DNA of 64,000 nt. Source: a virus. Made by a program: the position numbers and the translations under genes. Position 1 is the stretch's first letter. Each line of letters opens with the position of its first letter. Positions 3,145 to 20,008 of the stretch are shown one piece after another. The DNA is taken from positions 27,155-91,154 of the IMG/VR virus record IMGVR_UViG_3300002092_000035, one strand, 5' to 3'. The notes beneath the pieces are model-generated. The model was given only the letters and a program-made list of their open reading frames with translations, had not been told where the DNA came from and did not search any database.

Positions 3145-3195
3145 GTTTATATTTCGTGATGCTGTTGCATCGCTAAATATCTTGTAAAGTTTAAC

Positions 3196-3271
3196 GGGGA
3201 ATTAGCTCATTTGGTAGAGCGTCTGATTTGCATTCAGAAGGTGAGCGGTTCGATCCCGCTATTCTCCACCA
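3196..3271 (+). tRNA. tRNA-Ala(UGC)
   Basis: Cloverleaf, G3-U70, TT TGC AT, CCA. Confidence 0.95.
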
Positions 3272-3281
3272 AACATTATAT

Positions 3282-3359
3282 CGGGGATTAGCTCAGTCTG
3301 GCCAGAGCATTCCGTTTGGGACGGAAGGGTCGTAGGTTCGAATCCTACATTCCCGACCA
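3282..3359 (+). tRNA. tRNA-Pro(UGG)
   Basis: C1-G72, TT TGG GA, CCA. Confidence 0.95.
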
Positions 3360-3421
3360 TTTATTAGATACCGACCAAATTTAAGAATTAGCACACTGCT
3401 TGGATATAGTATAAATAAATC

Positions 3422-5350: not shown

Positions 5351-5371
5351 GTAAAATATCTTCACCGGCAA

Positions 5372-5599
5372 ATGGCAATACAGATACGACAGCTTAAAGA
5401 ATGGAAAGGATACAATTCCTTTACCGTTCCCATTGTATTTGGAATTCCTATCCCTGACCAAAACGATGTAAATCTATTGAAATCTCAGTATCCAGGAAAC
5501 TATCATGTTCTGCTGACAACAATCGGAAATTCCTTTGAGAATTGTATCGTGTTTGATGATCCAACAGAAGAATCGTTTTTTATATTGAAGTATCTATAG
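5372..5599 (+). CDS. Small protein, distant member of the F.D..D..F.L.W family
   Basis: C-terminus VFDDPTEESFFILKYL. Confidence 0.55.
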   Translation: MAIQIRQLKEWKGYNSFTVPIVFGIPIPDQNDVNLLKSQYPGNYHVLLTTIGNSFENCIVFDDPTEESFFILKYL

Positions 5600-5614
5600 A
5601 CGATAAGTATTATC

Positions 5615-6601
5615 ATGACTAAAAGAATATTGGTATGCGGGGCCGGTGGATTTATCGGAACACATTTAGTAGAGAGCCTTAAGGCACAAGGTCACTATGT
5701 GGTAGGTGCAGATTTAAAAAAGCCACAATACACTACTTCATCAGCAGATAGATTTTATCAATCATGTGATCTCCGTGACAAGTATTATGTAGAGAAGCTG
5801 TTTATACAAGAATCTTTTGATGAGATTTATCAGTTGGCGGCAGATATGGGTGGCGCTGGATATGTTTTCACTGGAAAACATGATGCAGATATCATGCACA
5901 ACTCAGCGTCTATCAATCTAAACATCGTATCTGCGATGATAGCACACAATGTAAAGAAAGTGTTTTATAGCTCGTCTGCGTGTATTTATCCTGAATACAA
6001 ACAACTGGATCCAGATAATGTCTGCCTAGAAGAATCAGCAGCATACCCAGCAGCCCCGGACAGCGAATACGGTTGGGAGAAGTTATTCTCTGAGAGATTG
6101 TATATGAATTATGCTAAGAACTACGGCATAGATGCCCGTATAGCACGATTTCATAATGTATTTGGACCTAAAGGTTCTTGGAATAATGGCAAAGAGAAGT
6201 CTCCTGCTGCACTGTGCCGAAAGGTAGCAATGGCAAACGAAGGGGATGAAATAGAAGTCTGGGGTAACGGAACTCAGTCTAGATCATTCCTTTACATAGA
6301 CGAGTGTATTGAAGGCATACACAGAATTATGGAAAGCGACTATGCGTCGCCGCTAAATTTAGGAAGCGAACGCCAGGTATCTATCAATGAACTTGTGGGC
6401 ATAATATCTAGGGCAGCAAACAAAAAAGTAAAAATCAATAATGTTCCTGGACCGACGGGTGTCATGGGTAGAACATCAGACAATAATCTTCTGCGTAAAA
6501 CATTAGACTGGACCCCTGATGAAGATTTAGAAGGGGGCATATTAAAGACTTATCGTTGGATCGCCGAACAAATAGCACAAGGGAAATCAGATGAAAATTA
6601 A
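5615..6601 (+). CDS. NAD-dependent epimerase, GDP-mannose 3,5-epimerase-like
   Basis: GAGGFIG, LAADMGGAG, SSACIYP, YGWEK, EKSPAALCRK. Confidence 0.88.
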   Translation: MTKRILVCGAGGFIGTHLVESLKAQGHYVVGADLKKPQYTTSSADRFYQSCDLRDKYYVEKLFIQESFDEIYQLAADMGGAGYVFTGKHDADIMHNSASINLNIVSAMIAHNVKKVFYSSSACIYPEYKQLDPDNVCLEESAAYPAAPDSEYGWEKLFSERLYMNYAKNYGIDARIARFHNVFGPKGSWNNGKEKSPAALCRKVAMANEGDEIEVWGNGTQSRSFLYIDECIEGIHRIMESDYASPLNLGSERQVSINELVGIISRAANKKVKINNVPGPTGVMGRTSDNNLLRKTLDWTPDEDLEGGILKTYRWIAEQIAQGKSDEN

Positions 6602-7901
6602 AGTAGTTTACAACTGGATCGGTCCTGCTGGTCCCACTGATAACAACTATCTTCCTAATGTGCTGAGTTTTGCACAGGCATTTGATGAAAATAATCATAT
6701 TCCTCCTCAATGGAATGCAGATTGGACTTGGCAGCAGTTTTTCTCTCACGGGAATGAACATTTTGAGATTTGTCCTTCAGTAGCAATTAGTGAGAACGAT
6801 GATAGTCTGTTTGTTTTTCCAGTCGCATTGTCTTGGAGAAATATTATTCCAACTTATTATCTCAAAAATTTAGGCATCTTAGAGGCTTCGCGTATCCCAG
6901 CGAATATTTTAAACTGTATCAAACATCATAATGGTTATTTCGTTATTGATTTTTCAGGGGAAGGTCACGGAATACGGGATACAGACTTTGATCATATGCA
7001 TTCTTATTTTACTCATCTCAAAATCCCCTTGAGAAAAATTATATATATCACTGGATCATCAAACAGTGCAGATTTGTATGCCAAATACTGTTCAGGTAGA
7101 GGTATCTCTGCTACTGATAGGATGAACTTAGTGACTTATGTCAGGGGAACAGTGCATGTAGTCTCTAAAAGCATAAGTGAACCTGATTATGATAGTGAAA
7201 CCGTTCCTAAAAAACTTTTCTTGTCTTGGAACAAAAGAACAAGAAAGCATCGCTTTGATATAGCATTACTGTTAGAGAAGCATGATCTAGTGGATAGAAG
7301 CTATCTGAGTTTTCATAATGAAGAGACCGGAATAGGATTCAAAGAAACTTATCGTAATATAGGGGGAATTACCGATACGACTTTGGGCATAACACCTAAG
7401 GTAATAGATAGATTTGCTTCTAAATTGCCATTAGTGTTAGACGGTGAAACCAATCTCTATAAGATACTGTTTACTAATTTAGAGGTTACAACTAGACCGT
7501 TTTATCAAAATAGTCTGATCAGTCTTATAACAGAGACCCATTTCTACGAAGAACATACATGTTTAACCGAAAAGTCATTCAAACAAGCCAAAGAGAAACA
7601 CCCCTTTATTATCGTAGGCGGCGTAGGATCTCTCAAGTATCTGCGTGAATTAGGTTTTAAAACCTTTAGTGATTTCTGGGATGAATCTTATGATGATTGT
7701 AAGGATCCGGTAGAAAGAATGCAACGCATAGATTCTCTGATCAAAAATATCGGTGAATGGACTCCGGAACAACTTCTAGATTTCAGACGAAAGGTCAAAC
7801 CTATAGTAGAGCATAACTTCAAGGTGTTTGATACCGAAATGGTGAAAAATGCACTGAGGCTATCATTAAACAAAATCAATGATATAGTTACTGCTGTATA
7901 A
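6591..7901 (+). CDS. Putative glycosyltransferase-like protein
   Basis: SLITET...LTEKSFK...HPFII.G..GSL.YLRELGFKTF..FWDESYD motif of phage GT-like proteins; sugar operon context. Confidence 0.55.
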   Translation: MKIKVVYNWIGPAGPTDNNYLPNVLSFAQAFDENNHIPPQWNADWTWQQFFSHGNEHFEICPSVAISENDDSLFVFPVALSWRNIIPTYYLKNLGILEASRIPANILNCIKHHNGYFVIDFSGEGHGIRDTDFDHMHSYFTHLKIPLRKIIYITGSSNSADLYAKYCSGRGISATDRMNLVTYVRGTVHVVSKSISEPDYDSETVPKKLFLSWNKRTRKHRFDIALLLEKHDLVDRSYLSFHNEETGIGFKETYRNIGGITDTTLGITPKVIDRFASKLPLVLDGETNLYKILFTNLEVTTRPFYQNSLISLITETHFYEEHTCLTEKSFKQAKEKHPFIIVGGVGSLKYLRELGFKTFSDFWDESYDDCKDPVERMQRIDSLIKNIGEWTPEQLLDFRRKVKPIVEHNFKVFDTEMVKNALRLSLNKINDIVTAV

Positions 7902-7960
7902 AAATATATTGATCAGGCTGTTTGAGCGTAAATATCAATACAAACTTAATGAGAGGCTAA

Positions 7961-9145
7961 ATGAAAAAAATTGCGATGATTGGTGTTGGTAAGCTAGGCC
8001 AAGACTGTGCTGAAATGATGGCAGAGAAGCATGATGTAGTTGGGTACGATGTATCACCGAGAAATCCAACTTTTCCAATGAAGGATACCATTAGAGAAGC
8101 AGTGGAAGGTAGAGAATTAATCTTTATCGCAGCTCCTACTCCACACGATCCTGTCTATGGTGGCGAGACTCCTACGAGTCATCTTCCTAACAAGGACTTT
8201 GACTATACGATTGTTAGAGAGATTCTAGCCGAAGTCAACAAGTATGTTAACCCGACACAACTCGTCGTACTGATCAGCACTGTTCTTCCTGGAACAATTC
8301 GCAGAGAACTCCGCCCGGAAATCACCAACGCACGATTCATCTACAATCCTTATCTCATCGCAATGGGAACTATCAAGTGGGACATGGTGAATCCTGAAAT
8401 GGTAATTGTCGGTACTGATGACGGTTCTATCACAGGTGATGCGAAGGAACTGATTGACTTCTACAAGACATTCATGCAGAACGATCCAAGATACGAAGTT
8501 GGTACTTGGGATGAAGCAGAAGCTATCAAGATTTTTTATAACACCTTCATCTCTGCCAAAGTTGGTATCGTCAACATGATTCAAGATGTCGCTGAAAAGA
8601 ATGGCAACATGAATGTTGATGTTGTGACAGGAGCACTCGCTCGCTCAAATTACCGCATTACTGGTCCAGCATACATGCAAGCAGGTATGGGCGATGGCGG
8701 AGCCTGTCATCCGCGTGATAATATCGCGCTACGCTACATGGCAGAACAACTTGATCTAGGATATGACTTGTTTGATAGCATCATGCGAGCAAGAGAAGTT
8801 CAAGCTGAGAACATGGCCATGACTGTTCTTAACTATGGAAAGAACATTACAATTGTTGGCAAGGCTTATAAGCCCGGCGTGCATTACACGAATGGTTCTT
8901 CTTCTATGCTCGTAGCATATTACATTGAGGAACAAGGTGGAACCGTCAACTACTATGATGAACACACCGGTGACCTAGATTTTAAGAGTGACACTACTGA
9001 TGTCTATCTCATTGGCTACTGGGATGATTATGTGAAGGCACTGAACTTCCCTGCTAAGTCGGTCGTGATTGATCCTTGGCGAAAGATTGATGATACGCAG
9101 CATTCCGGTAAGATCGTTCATTACGGCAATACCCGATTGATGTAA
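7961..9145 (+). CDS. UDP-glucose/GDP-mannose dehydrogenase family
   Basis: GVGKLG, STVLPGT, AEAIK..YN, GDGGACHPRD catalytic Cys. Confidence 0.9.
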   Translation: MKKIAMIGVGKLGQDCAEMMAEKHDVVGYDVSPRNPTFPMKDTIREAVEGRELIFIAAPTPHDPVYGGETPTSHLPNKDFDYTIVREILAEVNKYVNPTQLVVLISTVLPGTIRRELRPEITNARFIYNPYLIAMGTIKWDMVNPEMVIVGTDDGSITGDAKELIDFYKTFMQNDPRYEVGTWDEAEAIKIFYNTFISAKVGIVNMIQDVAEKNGNMNVDVVTGALARSNYRITGPAYMQAGMGDGGACHPRDNIALRYMAEQLDLGYDLFDSIMRAREVQAENMAMTVLNYGKNITIVGKAYKPGVHYTNGSSSMLVAYYIEEQGGTVNYYDEHTGDLDFKSDTTDVYLIGYWDDYVKALNFPAKSVVIDPWRKIDDTQHSGKIVHYGNTRLM

Positions 9146-9153
9146 AATATTAT

Positions 9154-9228
9154 GCCCGGTTAGCGCAGCGGTAGAGCGTCTGGTTTACATCCAGAATGTC
9201 GGCGGTTCAATCCCGTCACCGGGTACCA
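9154..9228 (+). tRNA. tRNA-Val(UAC)
   Basis: Cloverleaf, TT TAC AT, CCA. Confidence 0.95.
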
Positions 9229-9277
9229 TTTCTTTTAATATTAGCATAAATATAATCTCTTACAGAAAGGTACTACA

Positions 9278-9670
9278 TTGGCTTTATTTCACAAACATCT
9301 CATCGTCCGTGCAGAAGTAAACGAACCAATCACGTGTCCTCAAACGGTATCTAAGATATGGATGCCAGCATTGATTGACCGTATTGGTATGAAGATTCTT
9401 ATGGGACCTTATGCTGTTTATAGTGAGATGGAGGGCAATCGTGGACTTACCTGTGCTACGATCATTGAAACTAGTCATATCGTGATGCACATCTGGGACG
9501 AGATTAGCCCTGCGACGGTTCAATTAGATGTCTATACTTGCGGTCCTTTAGACCCGTATGCTGTAGTAGAGTCACTCAAGGAAATGGACCCAGTCCACAT
9601 TGACATGAAGTATCTTGATCGTGAACATGACCTGATCGACCTGCCTGTTCCTGTTGAGTTTGAAGATTAA
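9278..9670 (+). CDS. speD: S-adenosylmethionine decarboxylase proenzyme
   Basis: IIETSHIVMHIWDE and LDVYTCG motifs; TTG start after AAAGG. Confidence 0.85.
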   Translation: MALFHKHLIVRAEVNEPITCPQTVSKIWMPALIDRIGMKILMGPYAVYSEMEGNRGLTCATIIETSHIVMHIWDEISPATVQLDVYTCGPLDPYAVVESLKEMDPVHIDMKYLDREHDLIDLPVPVEFED

Positions 9671-9682
9671 TTAAAAAAAGAC

Positions 9683-9744
9683 TTGACATCCATTATATAA
9701 TGTCGTAAGATGAGGACAGTTGAGAGATCAACTGTTCTTTGACA
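9683..9744 (+). promoter_or_regulatory. Sigma70 promoter followed by boxB hairpin and boxA-like site
   Basis: TTGACA-17-TAAGAT; ACAGTTGA-GAGA-TCAACTGT; TGTTCTTTGACA. Confidence 0.7.
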
Positions 9745-9807
9745 TCGTTAAATATTTTAACTGAAAAGTTTGTCTACCAAGCATAAATACATAATAGGAG
9801 AATTGTT

Positions 9808-10404
9808 ATGTATTGTGATTATGGCTGCGGACAGCCTTCTCAGTATCTGCTTAAGAATGGTAAAAAATGCTGTTCTAAACGACCTTCAGGTTGCCCAGAG
9901 ATAAAAAAGAAAAATTCTATTTCTACCAAAAAAGCATACGAAGTAGGGGCGAGACCATCTGCAAAAGATTCATACTTATTATTGAGTGAAAATGCTAAAG
10001 CTAGCATGAATTGGAATAAAGAAAATTATTCTTCAACTGAATTTGAATACGGTGGACCAGGGAGTCACAAAAAAGCCTTGATCAAGGAACGAGGTCATAA
10101 ATGTGAAGGTTGTGGATTGACCCGATGGCAGGAATCAATAATTCCTCTAGAATTAGAACACATCGACGGTGACAACAGAAATAACATAAAAGAAAACCTT
10201 AAGTTACTATGTTGTAATTGTCACGCTCTGACTTCTACCTGGCGAGGAAGAAATATTAATACAGGAAAAATTAAGGTCAGTGACGAAGAACTATTGACAG
10301 CATTAAAAGAGTGTAGTAGTATACGAAAGGCCCTACAAAAAGTAGGACTTACTCCTAAAGGAGGAAATTATATTAGAGCGAATAAGTTAAAGATGCGCCT
10401 GTAG
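9808..10404 (+). CDS. HNH homing endonuclease
   Basis: CDYGCG N-terminus; CEGC, LELEHIDGD..NN..ENL..LC.NCH; stop lies inside tRNA-Leu. Confidence 0.85.
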   Translation: MYCDYGCGQPSQYLLKNGKKCCSKRPSGCPEIKKKNSISTKKAYEVGARPSAKDSYLLLSENAKASMNWNKENYSSTEFEYGGPGSHKKALIKERGHKCEGCGLTRWQESIIPLELEHIDGDNRNNIKENLKLLCCNCHALTSTWRGRNINTGKIKVSDEELLTALKECSSIRKALQKVGLTPKGGNYIRANKLKMRL

Positions 10405-10471
10405 CCCAACCGGCAGAGGCCACAGACTTAAAATCTGTCAAGTATGAGTTCGAATCTCATCAGGCGCACCA
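10395..10471 (+). tRNA. tRNA-Leu(UAA), short variable loop
   Basis: CT TAA AA, A15-U48, A73, 5-nt variable region. Confidence 0.92.
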
Positions 10472-10512
10472 AACTTATTATACGACTTTGATCATTTAGA
10501 CGAAAGGAAAAA

Positions 10513-10752
10513 ATGTTCTATGAAAAATGTGCTGAATTACTCGGCACCACATATGAATGTAAACCTTTTCCCTACTGTCGACCTACTCGGTGGAACAATC
10601 GTTCTCCTGGGCAAGGTAGATATCCGGGCTTCGGTCAGATACGAAAATTTGGTAACGGATTCTATGTCTCACTCAGACATCCAATCTCGCATCAAAAATA
10701 CTATCGGCTAGAAGATGAAGTGTTTGCATTTCTCAGAGGTTTATCATTGTGA
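10513..10752 (+). CDS. Hypothetical protein
   Basis: 79 aa with AAAGGA SD. Confidence 0.7.
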   Translation: MFYEKCAELLGTTYECKPFPYCRPTRWNNRSPGQGRYPGFGQIRKFGNGFYVSLRHPISHQKYYRLEDEVFAFLRGLSL

Positions 10753-10845
10753 TAAACTTATTAGATGAATACACTTACTTATATTTTAACGGCCCTACAA
10801 GGCACGGGCGTATAAGAGCAGAGTGTATTCTTCTAACAAGTTTAT
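10752..10845 (+). ncRNA. Handle-stem small RNA, copy 1
   Basis: ATAAACTT-A-TTAGA-T-GAATACACT pairs with AGTGTATTC-T-TCTAA-C-AAGTTTAT. Confidence 0.6.
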
Positions 10846-10922
10846 GGTCCCTTAGATTACGCTGGCTAGATCGCTACCCTTTCAAGGTAGAGGAACGGGA
10901 TCGACACCCGTAGGGACTACCA
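10846..10922 (+). tRNA. tRNA-Glu(UUC)
   Basis: CT TTC AA; T loop ATCGACA; CCA. Confidence 0.92.
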
Positions 10923-10927
10923 ATAAC

Positions 10928-11011
10928 GGGGTAGAAGCATCAAGGTGATGCCGGGGACTGTAAATCCCCCGTCTTCGGACATGCCTGGTTCGATTCCAGG
11001 ATACCCCACCA
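10928..11011 (+). tRNA. tRNA-Tyr(GUA)
   Basis: CT GTA AA, long variable arm, CCA. Confidence 0.92.
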
Positions 11012-11016
11012 ATTAT

Positions 11017-11132
11017 GTGTCATCCTTAGGGAAGTGAATACGATGTCAAAAATCCTGGCCGGATCGGAAGTGGCGCCCCACTTGGGTCTTGACATTAAGT
11101 AGCTTTTGTGGTAACGCACAAATGACACACCA
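11017..11132 (+). ncRNA. tRNA-like RNA with acceptor stem, T-like arm and CCA but a branched middle domain
   Basis: GTGTCAT/ATGACAC-A-CCA; TTGTG/CACAA arm; ATGTCAA/TTGACAT enclosing two hairpins. Confidence 0.6.
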
Positions 11133-11145
11133 ATGATGCGATTTT

Positions 11146-11180
11146 GGACATGCCTGGTTCGATTCCAGGATACCCCACCA
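11146..11180 (+). repeat. 35-bp exact copy of the tRNA-Tyr 3' end (10977-11011)
   Basis: GGACATGCCTGGTTCGATTCCAGGATACCCCACCA occurs twice. Confidence 0.95.
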
Positions 11181-11221
11181 TTTTTTTAAGAGTAACAGTA
11201 ACAAAAACTAAATATCTATAT

Positions 11222-11311
11222 GGAGAGGTACTCAAGTGGTTTACGAGACTGGTCTTGAAAACCAGCGAGGATGAAAGTCCTCCGTGGGTTCGAATCCCAC
11301 CCTCTCCGCCA
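11222..11311 (+). tRNA. tRNA-Ser(UGA)
   Basis: CT TGA AA, long arm, G73-CCA. Confidence 0.95.
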
Positions 11312-11319
11312 ATGTTAAT

Positions 11320-11394
11320 GCGGGTATCGTATAGTGGTTATTACGTGGCCTTGCCAAGGCTAGGAGGAGGGTTCGATTCCCTCTACCCGCTCCA
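11320..11394 (+). tRNA. tRNA-Gly(GCC)
   Basis: TT GCC AA, U73-CCA. Confidence 0.95.
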
Positions 11395-11401
11395 ATTTTA
11401 T

Positions 11402-11493
11402 GGAGAGTTGCCAGAGTGGCCGAATGGGCTGGTTTGCTAAACCATTGTACCCCTCAAAGGGTACCGAGGGTTCGAATCCCTCACTCTCCGCCA
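11402..11493 (+). tRNA. tRNA-Ser(GCU)
   Basis: TT GCT AA, long arm, G73-CCA. Confidence 0.95.
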
Positions 11494-11510
11494 ATACACA
11501 GGTTGACATT

Positions 11511-11855
11511 ATGAACTTTGAGATAGATCCGGAATTTATAACATCCATCTCTGTAGTGACAGAGTATCATCGTGCTAAGGATCCTGCTAATCCAACCCCA
11601 GAAGAATTTATGGCCATCATAAAAGATGGACCCGTAAGAAGCACTTCTTACTCAACTGTAGATCATCCTGAATACGATAAGTTAAGGAATAATCTCGGAG
11701 ACCTCGGTTATATAAAGATTGAGCGTATGTGGTGGAACGGCGATCGGGTCCTAAAAAGATTTACATTGAATGGAATCCCGTTCAAAAAGGATGATCAATT
11801 TAGCTGTGCTAGCGCGATGAAGCATCATCTAGAATACAAGAGAAAATATAAATAG
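11511..11855 (+). CDS. Hypothetical protein
   Basis: Start re-placed at MNFEIDPEF, downstream of the tRNA. Confidence 0.7.
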   Translation: MNFEIDPEFITSISVVTEYHRAKDPANPTPEEFMAIIKDGPVRSTSYSTVDHPEYDKLRNNLGDLGYIKIERMWWNGDRVLKRFTLNGIPFKKDDQFSCASAMKHHLEYKRKYK

Positions 11856-11880
11856 ACACACTTACACAGAGGATACACAC

Positions 11881-12021
11881 ATGAATAAGTCACATTTACC
11901 AGCAATGCTGGCCACAAGTTTATTGCTATTCGTATTAGCATCAAACGCATATGTCATCTATATGACATACAAACATCCTGATTGGATGGTTCTCACTTAC
12001 ACATTGCCTCCCATCACTTAA
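11881..12021 (+). CDS. Small membrane protein (46 aa)
   Basis: GAGGA SD; MNKSHLPAMLATSLLLFVLAS... hydrophobic. Confidence 0.5.
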   Translation: MNKSHLPAMLATSLLLFVLASNAYVIYMTYKHPDWMVLTYTLPPIT

Positions 12022-12030
12022 TTTAAAAAA

Positions 12031-12072
12031 GGTCATTTTTCGGTTGACTTCGGGTATTCGGTTTGCTATATT
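12031..12072 (+). promoter_or_regulatory. Early sigma70-type promoter with upstream GGTCATTTTTCGG motif
   Basis: TTGACT-17-TATATT; the 18-mer recurs at 50404-50421 (-). Confidence 0.75.
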
Positions 12073-12109
12073 GAATCATAGACAGACACACACAAACGGA
12101 GTTACTCAG

Positions 12110-12457
12110 ATGGCTTATATGAATTCCGAAAAGAAGGCAATCATCGCTTCTAACTTGAAGCCTGTTCTTAAGAAGTTCGGTGTTAAAGGCAGCCTTTCAG
12201 TAGACCATCACTCAAGCATCGTGCTGACTCTCAAGTCCGGCAAGATTGAGTTTGGCTCTGATCGTCAGCAAGTGAATCCTTACTGGTTCCACGAGCATTA
12301 CGATGGTGTTGCTAAGGAGTTTCTGACCGAAGCATTTGCTGCTCTCAAGAGTGCAGGCTGGTACAACAATACTCGTTCAGAAATTGACTATTTTGACATC
12401 GCTTACTATGTTGACATCAACATCGGTAAGTGGAACAAGCCCTATCAATTTATTTAA
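12110..12457 (+). CDS. Conserved phage hypothetical protein
   Basis: MAYMNSEKK...DYFDIAYY.DINIGKWNKPY; GGAG SD. Confidence 0.8.
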   Translation: MAYMNSEKKAIIASNLKPVLKKFGVKGSLSVDHHSSIVLTLKSGKIEFGSDRQQVNPYWFHEHYDGVAKEFLTEAFAALKSAGWYNNTRSEIDYFDIAYYVDINIGKWNKPYQFI

Positions 12458-12472
12458 TTTAAGGAACATAAA

Positions 12473-12667
12473 ATGGGACTATCTACAGACTATCTCAATG
12501 CTGACCCTCTCTACAGACGGGCCCGGCAACTAGGTAACAGGCATGACCGGCCTTCTTTTGAAATTCAGCCGGGCGGAAGGATACATCCTCTTGTCACTGT
12601 TGCTATTTGGGCAGTGATCGTTCTAAGCACTGGTATCGGTGCCGCGATGTATGCCTCAAAACTTTAG
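12473..12667 (+). CDS. Hypothetical membrane protein
   Basis: AAGGA SD; C-terminal TM helix. Confidence 0.65.
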   Translation: MGLSTDYLNADPLYRRARQLGNRHDRPSFEIQPGGRIHPLVTVAIWAVIVLSTGIGAAMYASKL

Positions 12668-12673
12668 AATAAT

Positions 12674-12755
12674 GCGCCGGTGGCAGATCGGTAATGCGGT
12701 GGACTGCAAATCCACTCCGAAAGGGTAGTAGGTTCAATTCCTATCCGGCGCTCCA
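12674..12755 (+). tRNA. tRNA-Cys(GCA) with extended variable arm
   Basis: CT GCA AA, U73-CCA, variable TCC-GAAA-GGG. Confidence 0.92.
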
Positions 12756-12853
12756 ACTATATATCGGTACCGATTGAAGTCACCTGATGACATAGGGCGG
12801 ATCGGTTAAAAGAATGCATGTGTGACTGCCGATACCGTTGCATTGAAGATTAT

Positions 12854-12929
12854 ACCTGCGTAGCTCAGTGGTAGTAGCATCGTGCTGATAACACGAAGGT
12901 CGGTAGTTCAACTCTACCCGCAGGTACCA
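12854..12929 (+). tRNA. tRNA-Ile(GAU)
   Basis: CT GAT AA, A73-CCA. Confidence 0.95.
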
Positions 12930-13021
12930 ATTCTAAGGGTTATAGGCTCTCCGGCTGAGCATACGACTTTAAGTTAAATGCTCTAATAGGTATAAATATC
13001 AATGCACAACGGAGCATTGAT

Positions 13022-13597
13022 ATGGATAATAGAAAAAAACCCAAGACTGAAAAATGGCTTAAGGCTATGGCAGATCGAAGGGGCAATGGAGCTAATCAAT
13101 ATACTAAAGCCAAAGCATTAGGAAACCCAAAACCAGAATTGACTGCCGAACAAATACAAAAAAGAAAAAACAGTCATACAGGAAAAACTCATACAGAAGA
13201 AACTAAAGATAAAATAAGAATCAGTCGTTTAGCATTCCTGCAAGAAAACCCACACATGGTTCCTTATAAGCTGAATCACTACTCAAAAGGAAGATCATAT
13301 CCTGAAGAATACTGGAAAGCGGTGCTAGATTCAAACAACTTAATTTACGAAGAACAATATCAGATAGGAATATATCAACTAGATTTTGCCTTTGTTGATT
13401 TGAAAATAGATTTAGAGATTGATGGCGATCAGCATTATTTAGATCAACGGATAGCTGCTAGTGATATTAGAAGAACCAAATATCTTGAAGAATTGGGATG
13501 GAAAACGATAAGAGTAAGATGGTCAAACTATAAGAAACTAGCAGATAAAAAACAGTTTGTTGATGAAATTGTAAAAGCATTGAGTATGGGCTCGTAG
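13022..13597 (+). CDS. DUF559/Vsr-like endonuclease with NUMOD3-like repeat (homing endonuclease)
   Basis: GKTHTEETKDKI; EQYQIG.YQLDFAF...IDLEIDGDQH; stop inside tRNA-Lys. Confidence 0.82.
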   Translation: MDNRKKPKTEKWLKAMADRRGNGANQYTKAKALGNPKPELTAEQIQKRKNSHTGKTHTEETKDKIRISRLAFLQENPHMVPYKLNHYSKGRSYPEEYWKAVLDSNNLIYEEQYQIGIYQLDFAFVDLKIDLEIDGDQHYLDQRIAASDIRRTKYLEELGWKTIRVRWSNYKKLADKKQFVDEIVKALSMGS

Positions 13598-13672
13598 GAG
13601 AATTGGTAAACCCAGCAGACTTTTAATCTGCCGCGAGAGCATCTGTCGGTTCGAGTCCGACCGAGCCCACCA
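13588..13672 (+). tRNA. tRNA with UUU (Lys) anticodon on a class II, Leu-like body
   Basis: GGGCTCG/CGAGCCC-A-CCA; CT TTT AA; 13-nt variable region with GC-GAGA-GC. Confidence 0.9.
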
Positions 13673-13690
13673 AAAACTTAAAGGTGAACG

Positions 13691-14086
13691 ATGAAACATA
13701 AACTTTACTGTATTTTCGCAGACGAATCTGTTAAGAAAATGAACGGTATCAGGGGAAAAATGTGTACCCAGGCAGGCCACGCATATGTTCACTCAATATG
13801 GGATGCATTCGCACCAAGTTTCAACTTGATCAAAATGTTTCGTAAAATCAAACAGGCGTATGCTTATAAACACAGTGAACGTGCATACAAAATCACGCTG
13901 AGGATATCCACTGTGGATGAGCTTAAAGCTCTCCAGGAAAAGTACCGAGACATTTGTGGTACCAGTCTGGTAACGGATGCAGGTTTCACCGTGTTTGCTG
14001 AGCCGACTACTACTTGTCTTGGAATTGGTCCAATACGAGAAGATAAAATCGGTGACGATCTAAAGGCACTAAAAACGTTTACTTAA
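13691..14086 (+). CDS. Peptidyl-tRNA hydrolase type 2 (Pth2)
   Basis: GKMCTQAGHA, DAGFT, TCLGIGP motifs. Confidence 0.88.
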   Translation: MKHKLYCIFADESVKKMNGIRGKMCTQAGHAYVHSIWDAFAPSFNLIKMFRKIKQAYAYKHSERAYKITLRISTVDELKALQEKYRDICGTSLVTDAGFTVFAEPTTTCLGIGPIREDKIGDDLKALKTFT

Positions 14087-14087
14087 T

Positions 14088-14164
14088 GATGGGATAGCTC
14101 AGTTGGTCAGAGCGCAGGTCTCATACGCCTGATGTCGAAGGTTCAAATCCTTCTCCCATCACCA
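14088..14164 (+). tRNA. tRNA-Met(CAU), probably elongator
   Basis: CT CAT AC, paired 1-72, CCA. Confidence 0.88.
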
Positions 14165-14172
14165 AACTATAT

Positions 14173-14249
14173 GGCTCCTGGGTCTGCATGGTGAAGACAC
14201 CCGCCTGTCACGCGGGAGATGAGGGGATCGTTACCCCTAGGAGCCGCCA
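14173..14249 (+). tRNA. tRNA-Asp(GUC)
   Basis: CT GTC AC, G73-CCA; T loop ATCGTTA. Confidence 0.92.
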
Positions 14250-14323
14250 ATTTTAATACCCAAAACAGTTTACTCTCATGAGAGAGTGTACTATAATAAG
14301 AAAATCAGAGATAAGGAAATCAC

Positions 14324-14890
14324 ATGAAGATCACTCTACGCAAGGCCAACGCAATTCAAGTAGCTGTCAACGATGCTATCAAGGGTCTTGACTTTAATTC
14401 TGTTGTTCACATCAATGAGTTTCAGACTCCTGATGCAGAGATCAATGCACTTGCAACTAAGTTTGCAGATAATCTTGTTCGCCGGAATAGTTTGCTTGAC
14501 GCCCTTTACGAGATTCGTAAGGCAGTCGCATCGGCAAATGATAGCAACGGGATTGATGTTCGCCTAGCTGATGTCGCTCGTTTTGAGAAGGACTTACAGT
14601 TCTATAGCACCCACGCAAAGGGGTCTGTAATGACAGATTCTAATGTGATCGCTGGCAAGCTGGATAAGCTTCGTAACCGTAAGGAAGAATCTTATGGCTA
14701 CGGACGAGACGCTACAATTGACACTTCAATCTTTACAACAGCACTACTTGAATCCTTTAAGGGTATCGTCGTTGCTGCTAAGAAGGCAAAGCAGAAGTTA
14801 CAGGATGAACTCCTTGAGTTGAACGTCCGCACTGAGATTGAGTTCTCGGCTGCTACAGTCGCGACACTCACAAAGGAAGGCATCCTTTAA
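14324..14890 (+). CDS. Helical protein resembling the DIP1984 family
   Basis: MKITLRKA..Q start; I...N..NGI; C-terminal KQKLQDELLELNVRTEIE resembles the DIP1984 C-terminus (recalled, not searched). Confidence 0.55.
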   Translation: MKITLRKANAIQVAVNDAIKGLDFNSVVHINEFQTPDAEINALATKFADNLVRRNSLLDALYEIRKAVASANDSNGIDVRLADVARFEKDLQFYSTHAKGSVMTDSNVIAGKLDKLRNRKEESYGYGRDATIDTSIFTTALLESFKGIVVAAKKAKQKLQDELLELNVRTEIEFSAATVATLTKEGIL

Positions 14891-14930
14891 AGTTTGGTAG
14901 TTAGACCCCTCGCAGTGGGGGTAAATTGCC

Positions 14931-15164
14931 CGGAAGAGAAAAGAGAGATTAGAATAGACACCCGTTCCAATTAAATTGGAACCAGCATCCGAAGCTCTTG
15001 AAAAGCTTCTCGCTAGTATGATCTAACCGTATTTTGTTGCATATTGTGGTTGAGAAATACACTGGCTTATTGTAGATTGTTCTTTGTTGATTGTTTGGTA
15101 GGTTGTTCTTGTACGAGACACCGATGCAGTTTGCACAGTCTATCACTTGCTCTTTTCTTTTTCG
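14931..15164 (+). ncRNA. Candidate ~230-nt structured RNA with 7-nt periodic UUGU repeats
   Basis: 15-bp closing stem 14931-14945/15150-15164; inner ATAGAC/GTCTAT; TTGT at 15070, 15077, 15084, 15091. Confidence 0.6.
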
Positions 15165-15195
15165 TAATTATTTTTAAAAAAGTTGAAAATAGTTC

Positions 15196-15264
15196 TTGAC
15201 ATTGGTATGAGGACTATATATAATAAGAAAATAAGAGATGAGAAATCATCTTCGCTCTTTGAAA
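15196..15264 (+). promoter_or_regulatory. Consensus sigma70 promoter plus boxB/boxA-like site
   Basis: TTGACA-17-TATAAT; AGATGA-GAAA-TCATCT; CGCTCTTTGAAA. Confidence 0.75.
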
Positions 15265-15276
15265 TTGTAGAATTTA

Positions 15277-15368
15277 TATTCTCATTAGATGAATACACAG
15301 GACGGACATAGCCCCCGTAACACGGGGCAGAATGGTGGTGACGACAGTGTGTTCTTCTAATGAGAATA
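15277..15368 (+). ncRNA. Handle-stem small RNA, copy 2
   Basis: TATTCTCATTAGA-T-GAATACAC pairs with GTGTGTTC-T-TCTAATGAGAATA. Confidence 0.6.
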
Positions 15369-15457
15369 AGAATTGGGGGCATAGCCTCTTTAGGGTAGCA
15401 GGGAGTAATAAGTAGGTCGCAAGGCTAAAGGCATAAATACATTGAAGGAAACTTAAT

Positions 15458-16141
15458 ATGTATTATGTGTATATGCTTTTGGACCCACGTAAAGACAATA
15501 TCCCTTTCTATATCGGAAAAGGTATCGGTGATAGATGGAAAGACCATCTGAAAGAATCTGCTGATTCTACTATTAATGAGCGGAAGTTTTATACCATTCA
15601 AAAGATAGTTAAGTCGGGACTTGTAGTCGGCCACAAAATTGTCAACTGGTTTGATGATGAAGAACAGGCATATGCGTTTGAAGAACAGTTGATTACTAAG
15701 TATGGTAGGAAGGGTTACGACCCAAATGGCATACTGACTAATATCTGTTTAGATTCTAGGCCTCCTAGGTGGCAAGAGGGACCTAAGCGAGACGAAATAA
15801 TTCAAAAAATTAAAGCTACTAAAGCTAAAATGGATTTGTCTCACTCGCAACAGACCAAAGATGATATTGGAAATAAGTTGCGGGGCAAAAAAAAGCCGCC
15901 CCGATCAAAAGAACATTGTTTAGCGTTAAGTAACGCACTTAAAGGTAAACCGTTAACTAAGCCTTGCAAGGATGAAACAAGAAAGAAGCGTAGCGAGAAT
16001 CAGCTAGGAAAGAAAGCAACTGCTGAAACTTGTGAGGCAATATCCAAAGCATTGACAGGCAGAACATTGACGGAAGAGCATATAGAAAAAATACGAGCCG
16101 CAAGGCTTGCTGCTATTGCTCGTAAAAAAGAACAGGATTAG
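15458..16141 (+). CDS. GIY-YIG (LEM-3-like) homing endonuclease with NUMOD3 repeats
   Basis: YYVYML.DP....PFYIGKG.G.R; E..LI..YG; basic repeats. Confidence 0.85.
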   Translation: MYYVYMLLDPRKDNIPFYIGKGIGDRWKDHLKESADSTINERKFYTIQKIVKSGLVVGHKIVNWFDDEEQAYAFEEQLITKYGRKGYDPNGILTNICLDSRPPRWQEGPKRDEIIQKIKATKAKMDLSHSQQTKDDIGNKLRGKKKPPRSKEHCLALSNALKGKPLTKPCKDETRKKRSENQLGKKATAETCEAISKALTGRTLTEEHIEKIRAARLAAIARKKEQD

Positions 16142-16169
16142 TTTCAGAAAAGAAAGTATAAATAATATT

Positions 16170-16294
16170 AGACTAGTTTGATGAATGCACTATGACCACA
16201 TGAGCGGGGTAGCTCCCGGGAGAACTTAGCGGTTCTAAAACAAAAGTAGGAATGGATTGGTCTCTGTTCTGTAGTGCATTCTTCAAAATAGTTT
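16170..16294 (+). ncRNA. Handle-stem small RNA, copy 3
   Basis: AGACTA-G-TTTGA-T-GAATGCACTA pairs with TAGTGCATTC-T-TCAAA-A-TAGTTT. Confidence 0.6.
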
Positions 16295-16296
16295 AA

Positions 16297-16375
16297 AGCG
16301 GGATAGGGGAGTCGGGTCGTCCCCGCTGGTCTCATAAGCCGGAAATCGGTGGTTCAAATCCATCTCCTGCACCCA
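16297..16375 (+). tRNA. tRNA-Met(CAU), initiator-like
   Basis: A1/A72 mismatch, G11-C24, CT CAT AA, TTCAAAT loop. Confidence 0.85.
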
Positions 16376-16382
16376 ATTAGAT

Positions 16383-16456
16383 GCGGCTTTCGTATAATGG
16401 TATTATCACAGCCTTCCAAGCTGAGGACACGGGTTCAATTCCCGTAGGCCGCTCCA
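16383..16456 (+). tRNA. tRNA-Gly(UCC)
   Basis: CT TCC AA, U73-CCA. Confidence 0.95.
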
Positions 16457-16615
16457 AAGTTTAGACACACCATATGGAACATTCCGGGGCCGGCGTATGG
16501 TGTATATCTGATGAAAAGCTGACATTACGCAATCAATATTTAGTTTAAATCCATAGATGTCACATAAATAACTATGTAGATTATTAATCTATTAGAGACA
16601 TCAAAGGAGACATTC

Positions 16616-16834
16616 ATGTCAGCTATTATCACTTTTCTAACTGGAAAGAAGACATATATCGTAGCACTCGTCGCCGCCCTCTTAGCCGGCGCACAAGCAC
16701 TAGGTTATCATATTCCGGAATATGTGTATGTATTGCTTTCTGCTGCCGGCATCGGCTCATTCAGAGCAGCACTCAACACTATCAATGTTAGTGCCCCGGC
16801 TCCAACTGCCACAGCAACAAAGCCAAAGAAGTAA
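16616..16834 (+). CDS. Small two-TM protein, holin-like
   Basis: GKKTYI motif, two TM segments, basic tail; TAAATA upstream. Confidence 0.55.
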   Translation: MSAIITFLTGKKTYIVALVAALLAGAQALGYHIPEYVYVLLSAAGIGSFRAALNTINVSAPAPTATATKPKK

Positions 16835-16855
16835 CATTCTATCATATACAGTGAC

Positions 16856-16879
16856 TACAGGAGCCTAACGGCTCCTGTA
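16856..16879 (+). terminator. Stem-loop after the holin-like gene
   Basis: TACAGGAGCC-TAAC-GGCTCCTGTA; no clear U tract. Confidence 0.5.
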
Positions 16880-16917
16880 ACCATATGTAGATACCTTTTC
16901 CGGTAGATAAATACTAT

Positions 16918-17406
16918 ATGTTATTAATTTCATACCGCGGCATCTATCAAGGTCAGAACTACGAGGATGCAAATAGCCCTGCTCAATTAAGGGATGCACT
17001 AAATCATGGCTTCTCTGTGTCAGTAGATACATGGAGAATAGATGGTGCTACTTATCTAGGAAATGATCAACCATTATATCTGATTGATGACAAATTCATA
17101 CAAGGAAGCAGATTCTGGATTAATGCTAGGAATGCTGACATGGTAACTTTCCTCTCATCACAGCCACCTAAGCTTTATCCAAACTGGTTCTACTATGATG
17201 ATGATACTCCGCCCGCGTATGTGACGACTACGAGCGGTAAACTATGGACCTTCGGAACCGTGCCGATAGACAACACGAGTATAGTCGTTCTCCCGGAACT
17301 AGAAGATAGAGGGTTATTCAGCACCGTAAAACTGCGTTGCTATGGCATATGCAGCACCTACCTGACTTTCATCAGAAGGATGCGTAATGAAGGCGAGTGG
17401 TATTAA
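16918..17406 (+). CDS. GDPD/PLC-like phosphodiesterase homolog (possibly inactive)
   Basis: ISYRG...NSP..L..AL..GF.V.VD.W..DG..YLGND matches the ISHRG family with His replaced. Confidence 0.6.
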   Translation: MLLISYRGIYQGQNYEDANSPAQLRDALNHGFSVSVDTWRIDGATYLGNDQPLYLIDDKFIQGSRFWINARNADMVTFLSSQPPKLYPNWFYYDDDTPPAYVTTTSGKLWTFGTVPIDNTSIVVLPELEDRGLFSTVKLRCYGICSTYLTFIRRMRNEGEWY

Positions 17407-17438
17407 TTTTATCCTATACTCAATAGTTAAATAATGTA

Positions 17439-18230
17439 ATGAGCATTCTTGTAGCCATACTAACTAACCGTTTCCCCGATAAACTTGAACGGTGCATTGA
17501 TTCTGTGAAATCGCAGACATCTGATATTGTTGTGGTCTGCAACACGCTTGACGTAGATTTTATACCCCGAGCCAGATATATTGCTGAATCTAATGATATT
17601 TCTTTTGTCATCACTGAATCAAATGGCACCCCGGCTAAAGGCAAGAACTCAGTCCTAAATTATTTTACTAGAACCGACTATGAGTATCTATTCATCGTAG
17701 ACGGTGATGATTTTCTAGGGAACAACGCGATTAGCAAGTTATCCAAAGTCATTGACGAGAATCCATGTGATGTGCTTACACTGGTATATGGCGAACAAGC
17801 ATTAGTCGGTGATCAACGAATGTCAATCCTTGAATGGTCTACTACTGATGATTACAAACGAAAATTCACCACAAGAAAGACTGTTCGGAATATAAGACCG
17901 TTGTTGAAGATGAGAGAAGAATTGTATCGTATACTGCCATATAACAGATTCTTGCTCATATCTAAAAAAGCACTATCTTATTTTCAATTTGATGAGTCGT
18001 TGATTGGGTTGTCTGAGTATCACCTTTCTATAAAACTCTTGCACTATACCAAAGATATCGTTTACAAAGGCTTATCTGCTAGCGACATCTATATATACGA
18101 TGCTAATGATCCAGGCAACTATAGAAAGTTTATGGAAACGATTGACGGAGAAGAGTTCGTCGGAAATCTATTACGTTCTTTAGATGAATACGACACCTCA
18201 GGAGGAATTGATGTCATTTCAGTTGGTTGA
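17439..18230 (+). CDS. Glycosyltransferase family 2
   Basis: LERCIDSV, SNGTPAKGKN, VDGDDF. Confidence 0.8.
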   Translation: MSILVAILTNRFPDKLERCIDSVKSQTSDIVVVCNTLDVDFIPRARYIAESNDISFVITESNGTPAKGKNSVLNYFTRTDYEYLFIVDGDDFLGNNAISKLSKVIDENPCDVLTLVYGEQALVGDQRMSILEWSTTDDYKRKFTTRKTVRNIRPLLKMREELYRILPYNRFLLISKKALSYFQFDESLIGLSEYHLSIKLLHYTKDIVYKGLSASDIYIYDANDPGNYRKFMETIDGEEFVGNLLRSLDEYDTSGGIDVISVG

Positions 18231-18840
18231 TAGTAACGTAGCACTTGATTATATAGAACCGTTCTGCAAGGCAGCAGAGAATGATCCTTCCCCTGCTGCA
18301 CAGAACATGATCATACCTAATTGGAAAAATTCTCCAGGATCTTTCCTCTATAAACTCTACGTTGACAAGATATACGACAAGGAAAACAAAGGTGGCTATC
18401 TGCTTCAAATTAAGGATGGCCAGATAATATCTGGATCCGGATTCAGCAGATGGAATGTAGATGAGAATGTATGTCTTTTATATTCTAGGACATACGTGCT
18501 GACTGAGCATAGAAACAATGGTGCACAAAGAGTAGGCAGATATAGCTGGGAACAACTCAAATACATGAGAGCATACCAGTATAAAGCAGGAATGATCACT
18601 TTCAATGAATACAATGCCCGACTCGTAGAACTTTTGAACGGGTATAACTCTGCTGAACGGACCCACACTATAATAAACGGTGAATATTATAATCGTCACG
18701 GTAGAAAATTTGTACCTAGTATTACATACCCAAAAAAAGTAAACATAAATCACACGAACCAGATAGTGGTATATTACTGTGATGATGCAAGTTATAAAGA
18801 AACTTTGTTAAATACGCTTAAGCAACATGAGATAGATTAG
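18211..18840 (+). CDS. Hypothetical protein, possible GNAT-like fold
   Basis: GGAGG SD; IISGSG...SRTYVL.EHR. Confidence 0.55.
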   Translation: MSFQLVDSNVALDYIEPFCKAAENDPSPAAQNMIIPNWKNSPGSFLYKLYVDKIYDKENKGGYLLQIKDGQIISGSGFSRWNVDENVCLLYSRTYVLTEHRNNGAQRVGRYSWEQLKYMRAYQYKAGMITFNEYNARLVELLNGYNSAERTHTIINGEYYNRHGRKFVPSITYPKKVNINHTNQIVVYYCDDASYKETLLNTLKQHEID

Positions 18841-19545
18841 GTGCTGTATCTTTTTACAATTTTAGGATGGATTTCTGTAGTAGCATTTGTTCCGATGTTG
18901 ATGTATGCTACCTATTGGCAACTTGCTATCTGCGTATCAATGTATTTCATATACCAAACGTTCGGTGGAAACTTAGGTTATCATAGGCTTGCTAGTCATC
19001 GCTTATTCAACTGTCCTCGTTGGTTAGAACTCGTGTCAGTGACTATAGGAGGATTGATGTTAAAATCTCCTGCAATCTATTGGGTAGCCCAGCATAATGC
19101 ACATCACGCAAAGGCAGATACACTCGCTGATCCACACAGCATAGAGAGAAATGGATTCTTTAAAGCAGTCTTCATGATTCCAACCTGTTCAGATGGCATA
19201 CAGATCAAGTATTATGCCCATCTCCTGCGTGACAAGTTTTACCTTTTTCAACGAGACTTCTATTGGTATATCATTGCGATTTATGTTTTGGTCCTCTATC
19301 TTATTGATCCTTTCTCGTTGGTCTATGCGTGGCTCGCCCCTTGTGGGCTCGTGCATATCGCTATGACGATGGCAGCGACATATTCACACCGCGGGGGTAA
19401 ACCACACGATGACCCTATCTTTGCTCTATACAGCTTCGGTGAAGGTTGGCATAAGTTCCACCATGAGAACCCGAGAGAGTATAAGTTGCATCCCTCATTA
19501 GATATAACCGGAAACATTATTGATATGTTACGGGTCAAAAAATAA
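18841..19545 (+). CDS. Fatty acid (delta-9-like) desaturase
   Basis: His boxes HRLASH, HNAHH..AD...DPHS, GEGWHKFHH; TM segments. Confidence 0.9.
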   Translation: MLYLFTILGWISVVAFVPMLMYATYWQLAICVSMYFIYQTFGGNLGYHRLASHRLFNCPRWLELVSVTIGGLMLKSPAIYWVAQHNAHHAKADTLADPHSIERNGFFKAVFMIPTCSDGIQIKYYAHLLRDKFYLFQRDFYWYIIAIYVLVLYLIDPFSLVYAWLAPCGLVHIAMTMAATYSHRGGKPHDDPIFALYSFGEGWHKFHHENPREYKLHPSLDITGNIIDMLRVKK

Positions 19546-19579
19546 TTGATTCTGCCTACAAATACTGTATAATGTAAAA

Positions 19580-20008
19580 ATGTCGGATGCATCTATTCCA
19601 AAAACATTAATATGCGAGAGCGTTAGAGAAGCCACAGTAGTCAACTGTGAAAAGTGCAGTGGGCTCGGATCAATTGAGTTGGTAGTAGAGAAAGATTATC
19701 ATAAAAGATTATTTGAATCGGGTCGCTTTACCTGCGACACCTGTGAAGGTGACGGGCGGATGATATTGATTCAAGAACATTTCAAAATTGTTAGCATGCC
19801 TGAGCGGGAGTCAACAACAATTCCTTATCGTGGAAATGCATATACACGCATTGATCCATTTCTAAAAGAATCTTGTCAAGTTGCATATACGATAGATCGC
19901 AGAGATTATAGCCTAGAAAATAAACATCCCGATCTAAAAGCACTACCTTATGAAAATTATGATAAGCTAGCAGAGCAATACCGACTGGTAGGAATATTAA
20001 AGAAATAG
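19580..20008 (+). CDS. Protein with DnaJ-type zinc finger
   Basis: CEKCSGLG and CDTCEGDG. Confidence 0.7.
   Translation: MSDASIPKTLICESVREATVVNCEKCSGLGSIELVVEKDYHKRLFESGRFTCDTCEGDGRMILIQEHFKIVSMPERESTTIPYRGNAYTRIDPFLKESCQVAYTIDRRDYSLENKHPDLKALPYENYDKLAEQYRLVGILKK

Follow-up and report, generated by a model that had tools for sequence, protein, structure and literature searches.

We examined a 64,000-nt stretch of virus DNA (positions 27,155 to 91,154 of the IMG/VR record IMGVR_UViG_3300002092_000035; hereafter the window), in which three hairpins with closely similar terminal stems, named c1, c2 and c3, lie within a tRNA array. This array, at 2.5–16.5 kb of the window, holds 19 tRNAs, every one of them on the + strand, interspersed with small open reading frames (ORFs) for a PTH2 peptidyl-tRNA hydrolase, a DUF559/NUMOD3 endonuclease and a GIY-YIG endonuclease. 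The source record of 91 kb has a CheckV completeness estimate of 25%, indicating a source phage of roughly 350 kb, and the DNA runs that contain the window are mainly freshwater and lake metagenomes; among RNA runs, none was found to contain the stretch 10700–16460. A 188-aa protein encoded close to the hairpins shows synteny with the tRNA array across 52 IMG/VR contigs, and no cultured phage relative was found either by megablast of the hairpin region or by tblastn of this protein.

The terminal stems of c1, c2 and c3 are 22–23 bp long and are built of 14 bp, a U-U mismatch at stem position 15 and a further 8 bp, with the core GAUGAAU(A/G)CAC / GUG(U/C)(A/G)UUCUUC (Table 1). The three hairpins are the longest inverted repeats no more than 200 nt apart in positions 1–20000 of the window, and as whole elements they fold with z-scores of −7.3, −6.6 and −4.4 respectively, with 0 of 200 shuffles folding as well. 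These data clearly confirm the hairpins that had been noticed by a model working from the letters alone (the sequence-only reading), which described stems of more than 20 bp with this core and mismatch at the three sites. The same reading took the interiors to be structured, and here it was mistaken, as the interiors of c1, c2 and c3 folded alone give z-scores of −1.4, −0.4 and +0.3, not above shuffled sequence. There is no shared sequence among the three interiors. Rfam contains no family that matches c1–c3, at gathering thresholds or at E≤10, so the absence from Rfam assumed in that reading holds, and no match to the tRNA model (RF00005, threshold 29 bits) overlaps them. Nor were any terminator-like sites found on the + strand among the elements.

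Both c1 and c3 end on the base before a tRNA, as the sequence-only reading had remarked, and its proposal that RNase P would generate their 3′ ends is supported by this coincidence of the hairpin 3′ ends with tRNA 5′ ends. The 5′ end of c1 overlaps the stop codon of an ORF at 10513–10752. The c2 hairpin lies upstream of the GIY-YIG gene, and the predicted promoter at 15196–15224 would begin a transcript approximately 45 nt upstream of c2, with c2 in the transcript leader. Two promoter-like sites of the window (14269–14325 and 15196–15255) are each followed by a near-identical leader, TATAATAAGAAAAT.AGAGAT.AG.AAATCA, one copy of which precedes the 188-aa ORF and the other c2.

Table 1. Hairpins and neighbouring features of the window, and tRNAs embedded in GOLLD in related contigs (window positions unless a contig is named)
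Feature	Position	Strand	Remarks
c1	10752..10845	+	23-position stem, A-C mismatch at position 9, U-U at 15; 48-nt interior; 68.8 bits
tRNA-Glu(UUC)	10846..10922	+	5′ end (RNase P site) sets the 3′ end of c1
188-aa protein ORF	14324-14890		Sole match phrog_25230, E 1e-6
Sigma-70-type promoter match	15196..15224	+	TTGACA-17-TATAAT, 12/12; consensus match only
c2	15276..15369	+	Stem with U-U and one U-G pair; 48-nt GC-rich interior; 68.7 bits
GOLLD-block remnant	15366..15409	+	First ~44 nt of the block; 95% identical between window and L062
GIY-YIG homing-endonuclease gene	15458..16141	+	In GOLLD's place between c2 and c3
GOLLD-block remnant	16159-16167		Last ~9 nt of the block
c3	16168..16296	+	Stem with U-U, one G-U pair and one G-A mismatch; 83-nt interior; 76.8 bits
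tRNA-Met(CAU)	16297..16375	+	5′ end sets the 3′ end of c3; followed by tRNA-Gly(UCC)
GOLLD-embedded tRNA	L062 12155-12226, L068 5443-5514, L066 9440-9511, L086 11992-12063, L071 11362-11433		
GOLLD-embedded tRNA	L073 3032-3103, L059 8427-8499, L127 5466-5537, L070 3508-3579		

For the terminal stem, which we call the handle, a covariance model (R1) was built from nine copies and run on whole related records, on the 52 loci retrieved via the neighbouring 188-aa protein and on further loci. Pattern scans of IMG/VR gave mostly chance matches, which were retained only if extended pairing or the covariance model confirmed them. This search of phage DNA, of a kind that the sequence-only reading had itself suggested, found at least 50 distinct sense copies in about 30 uncultured phage contigs, figures that are to be read as a lower bound on the breadth of the family. 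In the whole 91-kb source record the model detected no fourth copy at E≤1. A complete 360-kb genome with terminal repeats (G005) carries three copies and a 92%-complete 333-kb genome (G001) carries five, and the elements belong to a clade of roughly 330–360-kb freshwater phages. All 50 copies score higher on the tRNA strand, and no opposite-strand tRNA is present at these loci. When the contigs of 185,579 prokaryote genomes were scanned, a single true match was obtained, on a 1195-bp contig (L236) binned in a Rickettsiales metagenome-assembled genome (MAG), where two tandem hairpins are followed by tRNA-Met, tRNA-Gly and tRNA-Gly. This is probably phage DNA binned into the MAG, and the contig is too short to name the host. 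No host RNA similar to the handle came to light. The published literature, when searched, yielded no account of handles of this kind, and the handle RNAs constitute a real, apparently undescribed family.

An alignment of 40 copies clearly shows that the pairing of the handle is maintained, with 92.7% of cells paired and 18 of the 22 pairs altered on both sides, bearing out the compensatory changes that had been seen in the stems of the window. The covariation score of this alignment is 0.44, compared with 0.165 in shuffles (0 of 500 reach 0.44) and with 0.10 or less in controls in which the partners were slid. In addition, the stems contain 66 G-U pairs against 14 A-C mismatches, an excess that is unexpected for inverted repeats maintained at the DNA level, indicating that selection acts on the transcript. 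The U-U mismatch is retained in 37 of the 40 copies, and eight stem positions (10, 11, 13, 14, the U-U at 15, 16 and 17) are near-invariant, even though the neighbouring 188-aa protein of these phages is 44–73% identical to that of the window. We also observed variant handles (L057 7316–7381; L102 13691–13827, and also L103–L105; and a contig of run X4 around window 10778–10817), which have in common an inner stem, (R)AAYACAC / GUGURUU, and a pyrimidine-pyrimidine mismatch (C-U, U-U or C-C), with other outer stems. The handle family probably reaches beyond what model R1 can pick up.

In ten related contigs a GOLLD RNA (RF02032, 189–213 bits) lies between a c2-type and a c3-type element (L062, with the match at 12091–12554, L066, L068, L070, L071, L073, L086, L059, L127 and G005:253168–253631), and in eight of the ten the downstream element begins 19–24 nt past GOLLD and ends at tRNA-Met. 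An unbroken conserved block of approximately 890 nt extends from the c2-type element's 3′ arm as far as the 5′ arm of the element that follows (L062 11707–12600), with GOLLD as its 3′ domain. This block is 82–97% identical between phages, and its length fits that of full-length GOLLD, which exceeds 800 nt (PMC12286853). As only two remnants of the block persist in the window and the GIY-YIG gene takes up the rest (Table 1), c2 and c3 are the bracketing hairpins of a lost GOLLD locus. The c3 site is syntenic across all of the relatives examined. One DNA contig of run X5 joins 15252 to 16153 and so skips c2 together with the endonuclease gene, other sequence possibly lying between the two points. 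Within GOLLD itself there is an embedded tRNA with a conserved body and an anticodon that varies between phages (TAT, TAG, CTT, ATG, TCT, GAT); the anticodons of L062 and L068 differ though their GOLLD blocks are 97% identical.

Across the family the interiors range from 21 to 121 nt and, when compared with shuffles, show a mean z of −0.44, with one of 35 below −2. Three copies retain the full stem around a loop of 21 nt and nothing more, indicating that the stem, and not the interior, is the constant functional part. Interiors are mutually unrelated save in near-identical phages. Between the window and six relatives (L062, L066, L068, L070, L086 and L071) the arms and flanks are 85–95% identical, and ordinary non-coding DNA at 14890–15236 is still 72–75% alignable in the closer ones (L062, L066 and L068), whereas the c2 and c3 interiors give no alignment at all between the window and its relatives, which shows that interiors have been replaced and have not simply drifted. 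At the tRNA-Met site the stem is kept in all relatives and the interior replaced. The notion of a constant handle with unrelated, swappable interiors, put forward in the sequence-only reading, thus finds support in related phages. The c2 element is also present or absent as a discrete unit, its site being empty in L086 and L071 and filled in the window, L062, L068 and L070, and no clean target-site duplication was found on comparing empty and filled sites. An exact search of IMG/VR for the c1 cargo gave no match; one abundant contig of run X4 shares just the c1 interior (10778–10817), flanked by a different stem variant, which as a single contig is weak evidence.

Such gain, loss and exchange might be explained if the elements were primarily selfish or recombinational DNA cassettes, either miniature transposable elements with inverted repeats (MITEs) or modules spread by homing endonucleases, with the arms serving as portable homology or recognition sites and the RNA hairpin as a tolerated by-product, on the pattern of the Correia elements of Neisseria. 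Consistent with this are the behaviour of c2 as a discrete unit, the exchange of cargo while the arms stay, the run X5 contig that skips c2 and the endonuclease gene, the position of the GIY-YIG gene between c2 and c3 with more endonuclease genes nearby, and the fact that several copies occur in tandem with overlapping arms (9 nt in L055 7398–7478 / 7281–7406 and 13 nt in G004); RNase III, moreover, binds Correia elements and either cleaves or protects them (PMC2649163). However, all 50 copies lie in the putatively transcribed orientation, their placement is exact relative to tRNA ends, nearly every copy has T opposite T at one and the same position of its arms, a difference that a shared protein-binding repeat would not call for, and we identified no transposase and no clean target duplication at the c2 site. 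The 66:14 preponderance of G-U over A-C is likewise not expected of inverted repeats at the DNA level and, together with the single orientation, indicates that the RNA is under selection, whatever moves the elements. We consider it decidedly unlikely that the elements are primarily DNA cassettes.

As to position relative to tRNAs, 25 of the 50 copies, 19 of them among the first 40, end 0–3 nt upstream of a tRNA 5′ end, and 7 of 40 start on or within the CCA of the tRNA before them, this CCA then pairing in part with the 3′ arm. The majority of copies are not downstream of an ORF; c1 and c3 are. This exact occupation of spacers, by hairpins whose interiors are largely free to vary and not unusually structured, is what might be seen of passive structural insulators or stabilisers, which would prevent mispairing in a long precursor or block exonucleases with neither specific cleavage of the stalk nor any function of a released RNA, and behind an ORF, as with c1 and c3, RNase P would leave a hairpin at the end of the upstream mRNA that could shield it. 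Yet a passive role would need neither the eight invariant positions nor the conserved U-U, most copies have no ORF upstream to protect, and where the 5′ arm includes the CCA of the preceding tRNA, that tRNA can mature only once the duplex has been opened or cut. On this evidence we regard a purely passive function as clearly improbable. Several other roles were considered and rejected: a general function as an mRNA 3′ stabiliser, since most copies are not downstream of an ORF; a mini-ORF starting from the AUG of GAUGAA, whose frames end differently in c1, c2 and c3; and a C/D-box or kink-turn reading of UGAUGA, for which there is no CUGA partner and in which position 12 is often A.

Although the interiors as a group are no more structured than shuffles, a T-arm-like hairpin is present in 14 of the 50, against 1.0 expected and no more than 4 in 200 shuffles. 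Eight of these 14 have the T arm directly against the 3′ arm, an arrangement in which the handle's inner 8 bp take exactly the place of an acceptor stem and the U-U mismatch coincides with the boundary between leader and discriminator. ARAGORN classes as a tRNA the cargo that the c2 orthologue carries in L062 and L066, although its Rfam tRNA score is only 20.4 bits (threshold 29). Two cargo types recur in different phages, at different sites and with different outer stems, one of them with compensatory change.

These tRNA-like and recurrent cargos, along with a core (UU-N-GA-U-GA / UC-U-UC-N-AA) that stays near-invariant, fixed mismatch included, despite deep divergence of the phages, would be accounted for if the stalk were a sequence-specific handle for a dedicated protein, be it host Ro60/Rsr or an unrecognised phage or host RNA-binding protein, so that the elements formed Y-RNA-like modular ribonucleoproteins (RNPs) with tRNA-like decoy or adaptor domains. 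Bacterial Y RNAs generally combine a long stem with a tRNA-like domain, and in Deinococcus radiodurans Yrn1 the terminal stem is in the acceptor position (PMC4201824). The sequence-only reading had drawn a parallel with Y RNAs from their protein-binding stem and variable effector domain and from the likeness of GAUGAAU to the Ro60 site GNCGAAN0-1G, and one copy (L055 7398–7478), which reads GACGAAUG, does fit that site; a C at the relevant position of the U-U motif is found in 1 of the 40 copies.

We searched for Ro-like partners in the window's record and seven related records (G000–G006 and G008, including the complete G005 and the 92%-complete G001), and none of the eight records contains a TROVE gene, so that the co-occurrence with Ro60 envisaged in the sequence-only reading was not found. 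A DUF2828 gene is present in only one of the eight, G003, approximately 18 kb from the hairpins, and the hairpin-bearing G005 and G001 have no TROVE, DUF2828 or double-stranded-RNA-binding domain (dsRBD; PF00035) gene and no phage RNase III (PF14622, PF00636). Searches with the YrlA and Y_RNA models gave no match that overlaps a copy, either in window 10600–16500 (E≤10) or in L055 and L057 (E≤1), and the elements do not reach the Rfam gathering threshold of YrlA (RF02553), which is 69 bits. YrlA is encoded beside the Ro60/TROVE gene on the same strand (PMC4201824), an adjacency that the hairpins do not show. The YrlA consensus has GNCGA in Watson-Crick pairs ahead of an internal loop and places the T arm on the 5′ side (model consensus; PMC4201824), whereas the matching U of the handle's GAUGAAU belongs to a U-U mismatch within a continuous helix and the T arms are on the 3′ side. 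The tRNA-like topology of YrlA was not found either, eight of the 14 T-arm cargos placing the terminal stem as acceptor stem. Three copies without cargo beyond the 21-nt loop, and interiors that are no more structured than shuffles, are further points against a dedicated protein handle. The proposed kinship with Y RNAs and Ro60 is thus not supported; of the modular RNP, the constant handle and swappable interiors stand, no partner protein was found and the RNP is conjecture. We consider a handle for a dedicated protein unlikely, if still a candidate, and such a partner might be a host protein. G003 also has sub-threshold YrlA-like matches (L057 9985–10057 and 4642–4715; 43.8 and 35.2 bits), in the tRNA-like part only, and its DUF2828 protein is of 476 aa (ORF G003:38835–39578); these may possibly represent a Ro-like system separate from the hairpins.

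The explanation that we favour, tentatively and at somewhat less than an even chance, is that the handle is a processing and stability stalk of polycistronic non-coding transcripts (tRNAs, tRNA-like RNAs and GOLLD) that carries exchangeable cargo. We base this on the stalk being the part that stays constant under selection, on its length of about two helical turns, on its occupation of entire spacers and on its retention even where there is no cargo. Handles most likely mark where a long precursor RNA is cut. According to this model, an element would fill the entire spacer between two mature RNAs, with its 5′ arm on the CCA of the preceding tRNA or approximately 24 nt past GOLLD, its 3′ arm ending 0–3 nt before the next tRNA and the two arms pairing as 14 bp, U-U and 8 bp. 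RNase P cleavage of the downstream tRNA would make the 3′ end of the element, and the other side would be freed by a double-strand-specific cut in the stalk, for which host RNase III is the obvious candidate, and/or by 3′ maturation of the upstream RNA. The stalk would give clean excision and blunt-ended protection to the tip, which would be a cassette swapped between phages and often a tRNA-like module for which the inner 8 bp serve as acceptor stem. That the elements are transcribed, which enzymes cleave them and any activity of the cargo are parts of this model that we infer.

The dimensions of the handle agree with such a role. A duplex of 22–23 bp, or about two helical turns, is the minimal size of an RNase III substrate, and with 22 pairs and one mismatch the handle provides the duplex of about 20 bp or more that flanks processed RNA in RNase III stalks. 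The location of c2-type elements directly upstream of the conserved GOLLD block (approximately 850 nt), with a promoter match before c2, gives further support, and the absence of RNase III, dsRBD, TROVE and DUF2828 genes from G005 and G001 implies that a host enzyme would suffice. There are, however, observations that weigh on the other side. The near-invariant core, kept among phages in which the neighbouring 188-aa protein has no more than 44–57% identity, exceeds the sequence constraint known for RNase III and points to a specific reader. Many adjacent tRNAs in the same arrays are only 1–10 nt apart and have no hairpin between them, so that the stalk is not required for tRNA processing as such. 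Finally, the conservation of cargo families between distant phages, with compensatory change, argues that the cargo is not mere filler. A more ambitious synthesis, which we hold to be doubtful, is that of a phage modular small-RNA system in which a universal 23-bp U-U handle is read by a dedicated protein or is resistant to host RNase III, interchangeable cargos, many of which mimic tRNAs, act as decoys or adaptors against tRNA-targeting host defences, the units are traded between co-infecting phages via recombination in the arms, and the handles also define the ends of the GOLLD nanocage RNA.

Other features of the window were also recorded. A group I intron match (RF00028, 61.4 bits, above threshold) is located at window 1359–1544, with a similar match in L086 at 1549–1742. 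The final ~35 nt of tRNA-Tyr are exactly duplicated (10978–11011 and 11147–11181) around an insert of approximately 135 nt, which has its own 17-bp inverted repeat (11007–11023 / 11122–11138). In addition, a 19-nt inverted repeat with 84% complementarity (12839–12857 and 12988–13006) brackets tRNA-Ile(GAU); this stem is of a different family from the handle and encloses a genuine tRNA and about 58 nt.

Phage tRNA arrays are now viewed as counter-defence loci, yet hardly any study has been made of the non-tRNA RNAs that they contain; the T4 record, for example, lists species 1 and 2 merely as small stable RNAs and gives no function. The handle family supplies a clean, strongly covarying motif that marks such non-tRNA RNAs, and it shows cassette-like exchange of interiors and a link to tRNA mimicry. 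The bracketing of GOLLD by handles in relatives of the window's phage also offers a testable hypothesis for the excision of GOLLD and its neighbours from a precursor. Should the U-U core have a specific reader, the handle RNAs would form a new RNP; if they are only RNase III punctuation, they would be a neat though modest addition.

The handle RNAs can be compared with several known systems. Like T4 rnaC and rnaD (species 1 and 2), they are non-tRNA small RNAs on the tRNA strand of a phage tRNA cluster, bounded here by tRNA processing sites, and in both cases a GIY-YIG gene is nearby (segB in T4); rnaC also has a T arm near its 3′ end, as in eight of the handle cargos. The T4 RNAs have neither the 23-bp handle nor the U-U core and are single-copy with other folds, and homology was rejected when model R1, run with filters off, gave no match, its best score in the T4 tRNA region being 15 bits on the opposite strand inside segB. 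The T4 species are analogues of the handle RNAs and not relatives. Bacterial Y RNAs (YrlA, RF02553; Yrn1) likewise have a long terminal stem and a tRNA-like domain, the latter found in a sizeable minority of handle RNAs, occur in phages and show a superficial motif likeness (GNCGAAN0-1G and GAUGAAU). In YrlA, however, the terminal stem is in the position of the anticodon stem, the T arm being 5′ and the D arm 3′, whereas the handle would act as an acceptor stem in extended form, and its T arms are found on the 3′ side.

Correia elements, the MITEs of Neisseria, give rise to RNA hairpins bound by RNase III, the outcome being either cleavage or protection (PMC2649163). Like the handle elements, they are multi-copy units of approximately 100–150 bp with inverted repeats of about 25 bp and are present or absent between strains. 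The handles differ in their strict transcription orientation, the great excess of G-U over A-C, their unrelated interiors and their being locked to tRNA ends, and no target duplication was seen. Thus, among the hallmarks of MITEs, we find inverted repeats and the presence or absence of c2, but neither target duplication nor insertion in either orientation. A parallel can also be drawn with the RNase III stalks of the 16S and 23S rRNA stems, the early T7 sites R1.1–R5 and rRNA intervening sequences, in which, as with the handle, a duplex of about two turns flanks a functional RNA in a polycistronic transcript, there is a fixed internal irregularity, the apex is variable or dispensable and no phage nuclease is needed. 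The handle, in which cleavage is a prediction, is set apart from these by a core far more conserved than known sites need and by its position next to tRNAs that RNase P alone could free, and its tips are exchangeable, partly tRNA-like cassettes.

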